NCBI GenBank assembly: GCA_963924565.1
Contig: OZ004610.1
Span: 7,254,001-7,318,000, forward strand
Source of the DNA: Ascidiella aspersa
Taxonomy: Eukaryota
Direction of reading: 5' to 3'
DNA length: 64,000 nt
Both the position numbers and the translations under genes were made by a program. The number at the start of each line of letters is the position of its first letter. Position 1 is the first letter of the stretch. Under the pieces are notes generated by a model. The model saw nothing but the letters and a program-made list of their open reading frames with translations. It ran no database searches and had not been told where the DNA came from. Below, piece by piece: positions 14,736-20,424 of the stretch.

Positions 14736-17700
14736 ATGGGAATCCAAGCTTACCCACGCGACGATCAAGAAATTAAGTCGGTCCTAGTTACCGGAGGTGC
14801 CGGTTACCTTGGCTCCACAATTGTCCCCATGCTGCTTAAGGAAGGCTACGAGGTTGTGGTCTACGACAAGTTCAAGTAAGAGACTGTTTAATATATAAAC
14901 TGTTGCTATACCAGGCATATTAGTACTAATGGAACATAGCTCCTCTTGCAATCGAAATTCTTAACCAGCGTTTCGGCAACCTTTATGCAAGTTGCCATCG
15001 TCATTGTGAATAGGTTGCCGAAATTGGTTACGAATTCCAATTACCAGAGGAGCTTTTTTGATTAGTAAGAGATGTTGCCGATTTTTTGGGGAAAACTTCT
15101 ACGATCTTAATTAACAACTAGTTTTTGTTAATAAGACAAGTTAGGTTTAAGTTTCACATACCTGCTTTCAGGATATAGTCTTCAGGGCAATTTGAGTGAT
15201 ATTTCTCGGAAGAAACTATTCAGGGGACACTTCGTTCCCATATTCGCTTTAATAGTAAACTGTTCGTTGTAGGAAGCCTATATCAGGCCTGGTAGCTTCT
15301 TTTATTTACTTTGTCAGCCTGTGCCAGTCAATTCAATGGCATTAATTTTGCCGATAACCTTACTGCGCAAGTAACGTACATCACTACAAAAAGCACTTAA
15401 GTTAATTGCAAAACCAATTTACAGCTCTAGGCGCCAAGGCGGTCGCCGTGGCGAATGCAATGCATTGGACAGCACTTGCAGCCCAATTAACGGAGCGCAT
15501 CCTGTCGCCCAATTACTACGTTAACGTATAAACGCCGTTACTTGCTTTTCAGCTGGGGTGTTTTCCCTCTTGCATGCTACGCTAACGACCCGAAATTGCG
15601 ACTGGTCAACGGCGATGTTTTGGACGAGGAAAAACTAGCAGAGGTAAGATTGACATGTTTGTTCTTAAGCTGGGCGATACAGGAACACGCGTCTAAGTGG
15701 CTCTAACATAGGGCAAGCATAACTTTTCAAGCGAATAGTTCAAACTTCTGTGACACGAATCTGAAACTTGTATATCATTACAAAGGATTTCGGCTGTGTA
15801 CATTGTTCGGGGCTATATTAAGGCTGGAAAATAATAACTTTTGCCGCGACTTATTATGTTTTTTGATATGCTGCAAGGTAAAGCTTTTACTGGTCGTTGC
15901 TTTATCCTCCGAAAAAAAATTGTAACAAAAAAAGTGTAAAGTAATGCTCCCGACTTCTTTAAAAGAAAAAGAGAGCTTTAAGGTATACAAGCGTGTTATT
16001 GCGTTAAAAGTTTTACATTAACGAATAATAATCTCTCCGCCCTAGACAATGAAAGGAGTCGACGCAATCATTCACCTGGCCGCTATCGTGGGTTACCCGG
16101 CCTGCAGCAAGGAGCCAGAGGTGGCCAAGGCAGTCAACGTGGAGGGCACCCGGAACGTGACCAAAAATGTCGCCGAAAACCAACGCCTCATATACGCCTC
16201 CACTGGTGAGCCCGCAAAAACATTTTTTTTCTGATACTTCGTATTTATTTTCGATATTTAAAAAAATGTTATCTTTCAAAGAGGAAAGCGCCTAGGTACA
16301 TCCAAGAACATAGCTGGATTATTTACCTGATTTTATTGGTTTCAGATAGGCACCGTTACCACTCTAGTTTCGGTAGAGAATTCGATTTTTTTAAATCAGT
16401 ATCCAGAATGGTCATGTACTTCTCTTTCTTGACATATATTATCATATGCGGGGCTATACAAAGTTAACAGATTAGTAGTTTACTGCATGCTTAAACTTTT
16501 CTAGTAAAATAATCTTATCCGTTATGTTTCCTGCTTGTCTTACAGCAAAGCCATTTTTGGGCTCAGTATAGTCAAATTTAAGTTAATTTGACTAACCGCT
16601 AAACGGTCAACTGCAACCCCATTGATTCCACATCAATCGAGGGTATTCGGCTAGTAAGCGATTAACTGTCCAATTTCGTTCGTTGTTTGTTTAAAATTAA
16701 CCTTTTCGCCCCATCATTTTCCAGGTTCTTGCTACGGGGCGGTAACCGGCACCTGCACCGAAGACACCCCGATCAGCCCCATCACTCTTTACGGGGAGAC
16801 GAAGGCCCAGGGGGAGAAGTTGGTCAGGGAGAAGGGGGGCGTCGGCCTTCGCCTGGCGACCGTTTTCGGGGTAAGTCCTGTCTATGATCGCTAAATATCC
16901 AGAGTGCTATATTTTACCATTATTGCTATGAAAAAAAGGTTTATCATCAAAAGGGGATTTAACGGTGTGGGAAATTTTAATGTTTACTGCTAGGGATGTC
17001 CAATAATATCGGAACGAAGCCGATAGCCGATGCCAAGTGGTATTATCTTATCGGTACTAGTCCGTTACTAAGGTGATATCGGTGCTGACCCTTGGTTCGC
17101 GATCAAATGTAGCAATTATAAATAAAAGGTATACATTTATCAAAACACAGTAGGTTAACTACTGGAGGTAACTAAACCTATTAACTCCAAATCAAATTAT
17201 GGCTCCAATCACCAGGAACAATGACCTTTGGGCCTTTCAACTTCATCTAATTTCCCTATTTAAGCATAGTGATGACGTCATTTAGATCAGATCGCGATAC
17301 TTTTGGTCCAAAATGTGGGGTGATGGACATCGGAGTAAAATGCGTGGATGATATTTCGCGACCATAATTTTGGAAAGCTCTGTAGCCTGGATCAATTCCT
17401 GTTATTGTCCGCTCGCTTTTTCGCCTGGTTTCCGCTCAAAAACGTCTAGTAATTAATTCCACCTTCGCTGCGGTGAAGTGAGGCAAGAACGAAATGTCCG
17501 AAAGGATTAACGCCGAACAGGTTTAACAGGAAAAACCGGTGCCGTCAAAGTAGCTTTAAATAAAGTCCTCGAAACCATGGATATTTATTGTTGATTGCGG
17601 CGCTCCCATATTATGTGCACGAATGTTGCTAGTTCAAGGTTAAGGTCATACCTTATCGCGTCAAAAATCTTTTATCAGTGCCCGTGAGGCGTTTAGGGAT

Positions 17701-20424
17701 TATTTGACTTATTTAACGGAGGAGTTTAACCTGTCTTACCTTACTTCACAACGAATGCCAGTCGCATTATTTTGGCTACCCACAAGGTGTAGTTTTCGTT
17801 TGTAGCCGCATTTCAGCAGATAGCCGCATTTCAACTTTTCAAATGATCTTAGTCTAATGACAGATACCGCATTTTTTACTTTCTGAAATCGAAATGCGTA
17901 AAAGCAATTATAGCTATGAGAACGCTGTTTCACGCATAAACAAAGGAGTGTAAACTTACTGACCAATTCACAGATGTAATGACCCACTTGAAAATATATT
18001 TCAACCATAAAAACACAAAAAAATATAAAAAATGCTATATGTATTTTAACAATTAATTAATAATTAAAAAATATGTTTCACCTAATATATTCCCTGCTAT
18101 TAAAAATCATGCTAAACATATAAACTTAATGATTTACCCCCTGAAATCTTAGTGAACAATTAGAAGCAGGTTTCTACTTGTTTTATAAGGTCAATTTATA
18201 ACGCAAACTTTAAAAACATCTTGCCGGCCGTGATCCATGCGAATCAAAAAAAATAGCTTCTTGTAAGCGAATGAAAAATAAGCATTAGCATAAAAAATTT
18301 CGAATTTTAATAATTAATTATAAGACATATTTGTATTGCTTCCTTAATTTTTCTAATTAAGAAATCTTTCTCACAACCAATCTTAATTAGTATAAACATG
18401 TAACAACTGCGGTCGGCGACCCAACCGAATCACACAGCGACCCAATTTTGGGTCGCGACCCATAGGTTGTGAAGCACTGCCTTAGGTGATGAAAAGTGTA
18501 AAAAATTAAAACGTGTAGGAGATTAACAAGTTCTTCTAAACAACCTATAGTGCACCGGACTTCCTTTGCTTAAACCAGCGAGCATAAATCGTCATTTCAG
18601 CATCAAATAACGCCCCAAACTCTTCCAGGTTTCTCCGCGACTGCGTCTCGACCTTCTCGTCAACGATTTGACCTCAAAAGCTCTTAAGATGAAGACCTTT
18701 GACCTTTACGAGGGTAACTTCCGTCGAACCTTCCTCCACGTGCGCGACGCAGCACTCGCATTCATCTTCGCTCTTCAGCACTACGGGTAAATCTTCTTCG
18801 AATAGTTGACTTAAATGCACTTAGAGGATAGGGTATTCTAAGTATACGCTGGTGTATTAAGTATGTTAATGTTACTCAAGCGTGACGCAAGCGGGTTATG
18901 ACGTCATACAACATATAATTACCAAAACATCAGCAGACCGATCACAACCTGGATTCAATCAGTTCACTACGGATAAATCTTATTCGAATATTTGGCTTAG
19001 GGCATAGTTTATTACGTACGATAGCCTCAAGCTTGTTTCTTAAGAGATAAATCAGGACTGGTGAAAACAAGTTTATTCGACCCTAAACTCATACAAAAAC
19101 TGAAGACCTATTATCTCGTCACCTCGGTAGCACCTTGTTCACTATACGTTTTTTGTTTTGAAGAATAGTGCATTTAAGTTACATTTTTTCTCACTACTAA
19201 TACTAAAACTGAAGTCTGTTTATCTGGTGATTTCGACAACACCATGTTTAAGCGTGTGATGATTCGGATAACATTACAACTGTAAACTATAAGACCTCAT
19301 CTAAAGTGTGTCCCTGAAATATAAGGAAAACTTTTTCAAAACGAAAGCGTTATATAGTAAAGACAAAAAGTATTTTAATACAACAAGTCTTTGTCTTCTA
19401 AAACCTTTGGAAAAGAAACTTTTTTCAACCTAAACTAAATACAGCCAAACAAATGTCTATTAACTTTATCTACTGGCTATTTAAATTTTTATTTTTATTC
19501 CACCCTGAACGTTCAGACGCATATACACATCTGGCGCGCCTAAGTTTTTGTCGGCCATATAACTACTCTACATTGCTGCATGTTATACACCTTCCGTTAA
19601 AAAACTGTAACATGATAAGGAGTTCCTGATGCAAAGTTGTACATACCAGATGCATATAGTAGTCGATACTTTACCTGTAAATATGATATCGATTTTGAGG
19701 GCGTTACTAAATTGATACAGCCCAATGTTGCACCCAATGTTTGCGAACGAACTCATTGATTCCTACCGACAAGACTTATTTTTCAAGAATTCTAAATAGC
19801 CGACTTACCTAATACCCAAAACACCCTTTGACGTTCAATTTCTTTTGTTTTTTCATAATTGGCCTTTTTAATGTCTTTATAGTTAGCATTAATAGTTAGT
19901 ATATAGTTTTAGATTGATTACCGTTTGTCTTGACCTTTCTGAGTTTAAATGGGCCCGCGAATCGTCTAAAGGTGCTATAAATTAACCACGGCTAGTTAGT
20001 AAGCATATTTAATTGACGAGCCCAAAAATTGGCACTTGGACCAGACGCACCTATATTTTGTCTAAACAACGGCGACTTATACTCGTAATAAAATGTCAAG
20101 TAGCAAAAAATCCTGATTCTAACCAAACCACCTTTGCAACGCTTCAGAGCTATGAGCGGTTCCGCCTTCAACGTTGGCGATGAGTCGATGAACATGACCA
20201 AGATGGAGGTTGCGCGGCTAATCGAGGGCTGCGTCGAAGGCTGTAAGATTACCGAGTCGAACAACGGCACCGACATGGACAAGAGAGACTACGCCGTCAG
20301 CTACGCCAGGATCCGTGCTCTTGGCTACAAAGCCGGCATCACGATGCAACAGGGTCTCGAAGAACTGCTGAAAATCGTTCCCAATATGACTGCCGACGAA
20401 GTGCGACGCAGCAAGAACGTTTAG
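14736..20424 (+). CDS. NAD-dependent nucleotide-sugar epimerase/dehydratase (extended SDR), 323 aa, 6 exons
   Basis: Exons 14736-14875, 15553-15643, 16046-16205, 16725-16870, 18629-18786, 20148-20424 (972 nt, phases consistent, GT-AG). Motifs: [11 protein letters not shown] (Rossmann), GDV, HLAAIVG, NVEGT, YAST, catalytic YGETK (YxxxK), [39 protein letters not shown]. Confidence 0.92.
14923..15068. repeat. Fold-back (long inverted repeat) MITE-like element in epimerase intron 1
   Basis: AGCTCCTCTTGCAATCGAAATTCTTAACCAGCGTTTCGGCAACCT pairs imperfectly with AGGTTGCCGAAATTGGTTACGAATTCCAATTACCAGAGGAGCT around a loop of about 30 nt. Confidence 0.75.

Follow-up and report, generated by a model that had tools for sequence, protein, structure and literature searches.

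A tunicate gene of bacterial type belongs to an invertebrate family of Cj1427-type short-chain dehydrogenases that may take part in GDP-L-galactose synthesis

Tunicates are known to have gained cellulose synthase (CesA) by horizontal transfer. A 64,000-nucleotide stretch of the Ascidiella aspersa genome (contig OZ004610.1 of assembly GCA_963924565.1, positions 7,254,001 to 7,318,000; hereafter the window) raises the question of whether these animals hold a second gene of this kind, as it contains an intron-split gene for a short-chain dehydrogenase/reductase (SDR) of prokaryotic appearance. The preliminary description of the window took the product for an epimerase, acquired by tunicates as cellulose synthase was, that could supply a rare sugar such as L-galactose. 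Our preferred reading, to which we give a probability of roughly 0.4, differs in scope and chemistry: judged from its sequence, the gene is the tunicate member of a conserved invertebrate family of Cj1427-type SDRs, which would oxidize GDP-mannose at C4 and leave GDP-fucose synthase (FX) to complete GDP-L-galactose.

The gene comprises six exons on the plus strand, which join into a coding sequence of 972 nt with a single stop codon, at its end, and specify an extended SDR of 323 residues. The five introns are all GT..AG, with lengths of 677, 402, 519, 1758, and 1361 nt and phases of 2, 0, 1, 0, and 2. This gene structure, already proposed in the preliminary description, was borne out by public RNA data: one 1089-nt transcript contig (run X4, depth 574) skips exactly these five lengths. 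Raw stranded reads (X5) lay on the sense strand, and introns 1, 2, and 4 were spanned by two reads each. Exons 1, 3, 4, and 5 matched successive parts of PF01370; exons 2 and 6, searched singly against Pfam, matched no family. The only high-identity match in the 309-Mb host genome was the gene's own locus; the window is C4:7254001-7318000 of that genome (G000). Contamination was considered and ruled out because the gene is spliced, lies between animal genes (CUB/EGF/CUB/Sushi exons upstream and SLC6/SNF transporter exons downstream), and falls inside an animal clade. Its best matches and tree position likewise confirmed that the host is a tunicate.

The protein has the features of a PF01370 extended SDR, namely the TGxxGxxG motif at residues 19-26, Asp44, Thr130, Tyr153/Lys157, and a Rossmann fold, and the motifs quoted in the preliminary description were all found in their places. 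The core motifs are retained in 173 to 179 of 179 animal-like matches. The closest solved relative is Campylobacter Cj1427 (6VO6/6VO8), with an E value of 1.5e-74 by sequence versus 2.4e-26 for the next PDB chain. A profile search gave 1e-105 versus 2e-33. Foldseek, run with a structural model of the Ciona ortholog (predicted local distance difference test, 91), gave 5e-36 versus 7e-23, with template modelling scores of 0.89/0.94 and a root-mean-square deviation of 1.5 Å. Thus, best matches by both sequence and structure, together with signature motifs, place the protein with the Cj1427-type C4-dehydrogenases. The two proteins share the fold (42% identity for the Ciona ortholog), the glycine motif, the NAD-type aspartate, the Thr/Tyr/Lys triad, and near-identical stretches comprising a 20-residue signature-(F/Y)-HVRD and DKRDY. 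They differ around the catalytic threonine, which lies in ASTGSCYG in animals and PNTNSGYG in Cj1427, and the window gene is an animal gene with introns whose host shows no heptose pathway (gmhA and HddA queries). The xS(T/S)GS form occurs in animals and in 109 of 111 locus proteins; the heptose-cluster enzymes L020 and L021, which carry PxTNS, branch apart.

As described in PMC10680097, Cj1427 is a ping-pong C4-dehydrogenase of GDP-D-glycero-D-manno-heptose. Its tightly bound NADH is re-oxidized by 2-oxoglutarate, yielding L-2-hydroxyglutarate, and an epimerase and then a reductase complete the sugar (PMC10680097); the accounts in PMC7949155 and PMC9978623 agree. As the closest characterized relative is a C4-dehydrogenase, the label epimerase is probably wrong.

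As had been supposed, the protein does not belong to any of the canonical animal SDRs: it shares 27% identity with the UXS1 of its own genome, against 56% with the best prokaryotic row. It scored 98 bits against the GalE profile TIGR01179 (cut-off 262) and is not GALE, scored 96 bits against the 4,6-dehydratase profile TIGR01181 (cut-off 365), and passed no family cut-off in NCBIfam. The acidic residue that follows the catalytic Ser/Thr in UXS1 and the 4,6-dehydratases (GMDS, TGDS/RmlB) is absent; the window protein has TGSC instead, and STSE occurs in 0 of 179 animal-like matches. UXS1 shares the extended SDR fold, but it is the product of a separate host gene, and the window protein lacks the Glu of ASTSEVYG. 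The UXS1 label that older RefSeq releases gave to the Ciona and Styela orthologs was rejected as a misannotation on the basis of the low identity and the missing Glu. The Cys/His acid-base pair of FX (GFUS) is absent at the aligned positions, as is the Cys/Lys pair of GME (GM35E; PDB 2C54, 8SG0): a Ser stands at the Cys position, and the loop bearing the base is missing (catalytic residues from PMC8787198). By BLAST, a bacterial GME did not match the window protein at an E value of 10. GME is an extended SDR that also starts with C4 oxidation of GDP-mannose, and the two-enzyme route proposed here would have the same net product, but GME runs all steps in one site, with its Cys/Lys pair and no net redox.

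We used exon 6 and a full-length ortholog to evaluate the distribution of the family. The exon 6 search returned 27 matches among 194 candidates, the top ones from Ciona intestinalis, C. savignyi, and Styela, and the Ciona ortholog P0001 was therefore chosen as the full-length query. Among its best 120 matches, 33 carried an organism name, and all 33 were animals: tunicates, amphioxus, hemichordates, echinoderms, molluscs, cnidarians, and a tick. A second search with a deep-branching row as the query (best 120) extended the list to a scorpion, spiders, a mite, and a soft coral, along with additional molluscs and echinoderms; an annelid and more corals came from a cluster look-up. Orthologs of the SDR are present in at least seven animal phyla, cnidarians included; in the two best-120 lists, none of the matches bore the name of a vertebrate, an insect, a nematode, a sponge, or a non-animal eukaryote. 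The window protein is 72-75% identical to the tunicate orthologs and 61-68% to those of other animals. The alien index was +259 against UXS1 but −74 against non-tunicate animals. Two queries of the ESM Atlas returned bacterial and phage clusters only and were uninformative as to taxonomic range, and a scan of named prokaryote genomes yielded two loci, one of them a true relative.

These data largely refute a second tunicate acquisition on the pattern of cellulose synthase: orthologs are spread broadly across Metazoa, in amphioxus, hemichordates, echinoderms, molluscs, an annelid, chelicerates, and cnidarians. Like CesA, the gene is a tunicate glycan gene of bacterial type that is split by spliceosomal introns; unlike CesA, which is not known outside tunicates, it is common to at least seven animal phyla. 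The assignment to a bacterial, archaeal, or viral subgroup holds in that, outside animals, those named rows and loci that were seen come from prokaryotes or viruses. For transfer scans, the case advises caution, as a gene that looks alien beside vertebrate enzymes can be ordinary beside those of invertebrates.

Trees were calculated with FastTree from 260 of 373 rows after dereplication and with IQ-TREE from 53 rows; further trees had 49 (distant outgroups) and 46 rows, and none used a mixture model. Most prokaryotic rows were called prokaryotic from an operon-like context, which was verified for some of them. Cj1427 itself is absent from the trees, its subclade being represented by L020 and L021. 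In the 260-row tree, all named animals formed a single clade of 72 rows (Shimodaira-Hasegawa-like support, 97). In the 53-row tree, the window gene lay in a tunicate clade (99/97) within an animal clade (94/97), and the tunicates adjoined the ambulacrarians (84/87). This tree is only roughly species-like, as the chelicerates group with amphioxus, though the molluscs are recovered. In approximately unbiased (AU) tests, a clade of the tunicates and the ten nearest prokaryotic rows was rejected (p-AU 3e-5), which argues against a tunicate-only transfer; neither the tunicates with the single row L124 (p-AU 0.077) nor the tunicates outside the other animals (p-AU 0.295) was rejected.

With a near outgroup, the animals nest among prokaryotic rows with moderate support (85/89 and 88/89), and an ancient bacterial origin of the animal gene is plausible. 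The genomic copies seen in other animals (coral, bivalve-like, and mite) are intron-poor and have no intron position in common with the five tunicate ones. Each of four coral-like loci is interrupted once, by a phase-0 intron before residue 107 of the window protein, and a bivalve-like locus once, by a phase-1 intron at residue 81; a copy on a contig with genes that look to us like those of a mite is unbroken. This pattern accords with an ancestor that lacked introns and with independent intron gains, which is what a gain from bacteria would lead one to expect. Intron turnover is fast in tunicates, and this, or retrocopying, could also have caused the pattern. We lean slightly towards the view that the gene was gained once from bacteria, no later than the cnidarian-bilaterian ancestor, with vertical descent since and introns gained separately. 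Rooting with distant SDRs was unstable, and the trees give no firm direction for an ancient transfer.

Two further groups of rows were observed in the trees. P0162 and P0153/P0308/P0309 are eukaryote-like, branch basally to the animal clade, and bear on how old the family is. P0162 has no YxxxK motif and may be a dead paralog. P0014, P0044, P0075, and related rows, with L093, L097, and L102, form a second, faster-evolving group that is sister to the named ascidian rows. The P0014/P0044/P0075 group is abundant in marine transcriptome assemblies and possibly represents appendicularians.

In the pathway that we propose, the window enzyme would hold NAD tightly and act as an oxidoreductase at C4 of a GDP-sugar, a step that we consider very likely. 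The substrate is probably GDP-mannose rather than a heptose. By analogy with Cj1427, 2-oxoglutarate would, we think somewhat less surely, re-oxidize the bound NADH and be converted to L-2-hydroxyglutarate, to be recycled by L2HGDH; L-2-hydroxyglutarate oxidase-like (lhgO-like) genes near the relatives L020, L116, and L118 would accord with such a use of 2-oxoglutarate. Finally, FX might epimerize GDP-4-keto-mannose at C3 and C5 and reduce it at C4, giving GDP-L-galactose, although for this step our confidence falls a little short of even. FX acts on the 6-deoxy ketone by 3,5-epimerization and reduction and yields L-fucose, which is 6-deoxy-L-galactose (PMC8787198), and would therefore give L-galactose from the 6-hydroxy ketone. 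Where GDP-mannose and FX are present and a heptose pathway is not, the GDP-4-keto-mannose route would be the simplest role for a C4-dehydrogenase.

This route matches what has been reported of L-galactose in animals. The L-galactose of the ascidian tunic is made from D-glucose with inversion at C2, C3, and C5 (PMC3869271), an α-L-galactan is described from sea urchins (cited in PMC5620642), and an activity converting GDP-mannose to GDP-L-galactose was first found in a land snail in 1967 (PMC8787198). The tabulation in that 2022 review comprises algal, plant, and bacterial GDP-L-galactose-forming enzymes and no animal one (PMC8787198). Land snails, sea urchins, and ascidians all carry the family, and the proposed route could explain both the inversion at C2, C3, and C5 and the snail activity. 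The earlier suggestion of a link to L-galactose thus survives in an altered form, with two enzymes and across the invertebrates.

The host genome was searched exon by exon, so that counts are lower bounds and short exons can be missed. It contains one UXS1, two GMDS, three GALE-like, and three FX-like loci, as well as L2HGDH-like exons; the GMDS and GALE-like copies constitute an expanded nucleotide-sugar toolkit. In the second tandem FX copy, the first exon matches in two frames, reflecting a pseudogene, an extra intron, or an assembly error. No match to gmhA was found in the host genome, and the query for the heptose kinase HddA matched only one 1125-residue frame, at 24% identity, which we take to be a fucokinase. 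A GDP-heptose supply was thus not detected by these two queries. A bacterial GME query, verified by its best PDB matches (GME, E 5e-83), found only UXS1, at 28%, in the host genome. A degenerate pattern based on a GME motif had 0 matches in the host genome and matched 3 of 201 bacterial genomes; of two inspected, one was GME and the other a chance match.

The gene context of bacterial relatives was evaluated in 34 loci, consisting of the 30 best of 71 matching genomes, among 401 of one phylum, and four viral contigs. These loci are non-independent, and most flanks are about 1.5 kb. A GDP-L-fucose synthase (GFS)-like neighbour was present in 22 of the 34 (one doubtful). Of the non-animal metagenome loci, 34 were 3.5 kb or longer; in these, GFS neighbours occurred in 15, DegT-like ones in 11, lhgO-like ones in 2, and GME in 1, and none of HddA, HddC, or GmhA was detected at 55 bits or more. 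GFS directly follows the SDR gene in L114, and L118 has the dehydrogenase gene, an aminotransferase, and an lhgO-like gene in a row. A Solidesulfovibrio plasmid cluster with a relative of the Cj1427-like subclade contains genes for a kinase, a nucleotidyltransferase, a SIS protein, GFS, DegT, and lhgO, the first three of which we read as heptose-type genes. A frame beside L025 had no match in the PDB at 1e-25.

Several observations weigh against the proposal that the family serves GDP-L-galactose synthesis after a bacterial gain. The only characterized relative, Cj1427, uses a heptose and sits in a separate subclade (PxTNS versus animal ASTGS). Spiders, mites, and corals, which are not known to contain L-galactose, have members of the family as well. 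GME would fit the same L-galactose data, and its absence covers the host genome alone, by an exon-wise search able to miss short exons. DegT/ColD-like, pyridoxal phosphate (PLP)-dependent neighbours were as frequent as GFS-like ones, in 23 of the 34 bacterial loci (28 of 35 of the His/ColD type), and the host genome itself has a DegT-like gene, a sugar enzyme of bacterial type. As for origin, with distant outgroups the tree that holds all prokaryotic rows together was 13.4 log units above the quick free tree (p-AU 0.71). In the 46-row tree with distant SDR roots, from which GME, P0231, and P0162 had been dropped, the backbone collapsed, and the prokaryotes formed one clade in 2% of 200 bootstrap trees. 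The deep eukaryote-like rows P0153 and P0162 also bear on the origin of the family.

The DegT-like genes suggest that the same C4 oxidation could serve another partner, a DegT-type PLP enzyme that would make a 4-amino (or 3-deoxy) sugar, with glutamate-dependent transamination supplying the 2-oxoglutarate. Such neighbours in 23 of 34 bacterial and 11 of 34 metagenome loci, the order dehydrogenase-aminotransferase-lhgO-like in L118, and the intron-split host gene with a Lys-type motif (C4:14.397 Mb) speak for this pairing; that gene lies some 7 Mb from the SDR gene, however, and we know of no such amino sugar in animals, so that we consider it rather unlikely. A reductase or transhydrogenase acting on the GMDS product GDP-4-keto-6-deoxymannose, which would yield GDP-D-rhamnose or take flux from fucose, would accord with the reversibility of SDR C4 chemistry and with the two GMDS genes of the host, and earlier work reportedly called Cj1427 a reductase. 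Against this role, Asp44 points to NAD over NADPH, as an Asp after strand 2 does by rule in SDRs, and a reductase without a second substrate would achieve one net turnover at most. As isolated, Cj1427 keeps its NADH without free exchange (PMC10680097). Its former name, WcaG (PMC7949155), would favour a reductase, a role that we judge unlikely. Slightly less credible is a stand-alone epimerase with tightly bound NAD, acting at C4, C2, or C3/C5. The fold and triad are common to C4 epimerases, and the next-best PDB matches include UDP-galactose and UDP-glucuronate 4-epimerases, but their sequence E values trail that of Cj1427 by some 48 orders of magnitude; the GalE score (98 of 262 bits) and the absence of the catalytic Cys and Lys/His of GME and FX at the aligned positions also oppose it.

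It is very unlikely that animals make GDP-heptose by an unrecognized route and that the enzyme retains the substrate of Cj1427. The use of GDP-D-glycero-D-manno-heptose by the only characterized relative, after which RefSeq names the family, would favour this, but the host has no gmhA match and only the weak kinase match noted above, and the nearest bacterial group showed no adjoining heptose genes. Least credible of all is a tunicate-specific horizontal gain for building the tunic. The bacterial-type sequence, the lack of intron positions in common with the coral, bivalve-like, and mite copies, and the two topologies that were not rejected are in its favour; yet orthologs in seven phyla exceed the best prokaryotic row in identity (61-68% against 56%), and the tunicate clade lies inside the animal clade, the grouping with ten prokaryotic rows having been rejected.

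The similarity of the family is already present in automatic RefSeq names, and its database labels vary: UXS1-like, dTDP-glucose dehydratase-like, GALE-like, and heptose dehydrogenase-like. These labels are wrong. Literature searches, with subscription journals outside their coverage, found no study of this SDR family in animals, nor of its transfer.

Table 1. Features of the window and related nucleotide-sugar genes of the host genome. Positions refer to the window unless prefixed by G000, the host genome. X4 and RNA depth refer to public transcript data.
Feature	Position	Strand	Evidence
Upstream animal gene: CUB, EGF, CUB, and Sushi exons in MASP/C1r-like order	1557..10861	+	Domain matches
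5' untranslated region, approximate start	14646..14735	+	RNA depth from bin 14634-14867; X4 contig end at 14646
Coding exon 1: start codon, NAD-binding glycine motif (residues 19-26), Asp44 ending strand 2	14736..14875	+	Joined to exon 2 in X4 contig
Intron 1: 677 nt, GT..AG, phase 2, with high-copy repeat	14876..15552	+	X4 contig, RNA depth
Coding exon 2	15553..15643	+	X4 contig
Intron 2: 402 nt, phase 0	15644..16045	+	X4 contig
Coding exon 3: HLAA and GYPAC motifs, catalytic-position Thr130	16046..16205	+	Motifs, PF01370 match
Intron 3: 519 nt, phase 1	16206..16724	+	X4 contig
Coding exon 4: catalytic YxxxK (Tyr153, Lys157) and RLATVFG	16725..16870	+	Motifs, PF01370 match
Intron 4: 1758 nt, phase 0, with high-copy repeats	16871..18628	+	X4 contig, RNA depth
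Coding exon 5: 20-residue family signature common with Cj1427	18629..18786	+	Alignment to Cj1427
Intron 5: 1361 nt, phase 2	18787..20147	+	X4 contig
Coding exon 6: DxRDY motif and stop codon	20148..20424	+	Exon 6 matches, X4 contig
3' untranslated region, approximate end; AATAAA at 21138	20425..21185	+	Sense RNA depth up to bin ending 21185
Downstream animal gene: SLC6/SNF transporter exons, partial span	26253..34098	−	Domain matches
hAT-type transposase remnant: DUF659 and dimerization domain, three frames	44328-45922	−	Domain matches
Three FX-like genes with Cys and His motifs (L172-L174), two in tandem	G000:C1:4.260-4.273 Mb and C4:9.678-9.682 Mb		
Two GMDS genes	G000:C2:8.43 Mb, C9:16.07 Mb		
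Three GALE-like loci, separate from the SDR gene	G000:C3:16.45, C9:2.94, C9:8.54 Mb		
Intron-split DegT/DnrJ/EryC1 aminotransferase-like gene, Lys-type motif (L176)	G000:C4:14396200-14398600		

No serine-protease motif was found behind the CUB-EGF-CUB-Sushi exons in the stretch before the SDR gene. The high-copy repeats of introns 1 and 4 lie at window positions 14868-15101, 16974-17441, and 18144-18611, where the summed contig depth was about 800-17,900 versus about 60 elsewhere. Elsewhere in the host genome, some 20 weak matches to the N-terminal SDR region, with long open frames, form a tandem SDR-like cluster at C7:6.60-6.75 Mb. The assembly contigs C52, C18, and C54 contain long unbroken frames of bacterial appearance (G+C content of 0.44-0.45 for C52 and C18) and are probably contaminant or symbiont contigs.

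Taken at its broadest, the GDP-L-galactose reading would mean that invertebrates from corals to sea squirts make this nucleotide sugar without GME, using a 2-oxoglutarate-dependent ping-pong dehydrogenase of bacterial descent together with their own FX. The gene would have been gained near the base of the animals and lost in vertebrates; it would stand behind the 1967 snail activity and the L-galactans of ascidians and sea urchins, and would be an unrecognized cytosolic source of L-2-hydroxyglutarate. In this full form, the proposal is tentative, and we consider it rather doubtful. Animal L-galactose synthesis has been without an assigned gene since the snail activity was described, and the family offers a concrete candidate that is open to direct testing. 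Even if the product is another sugar, the strong conservation of a nucleotide-sugar enzyme across seven invertebrate phyla implies that animal glycan metabolism has a branch yet to be described.

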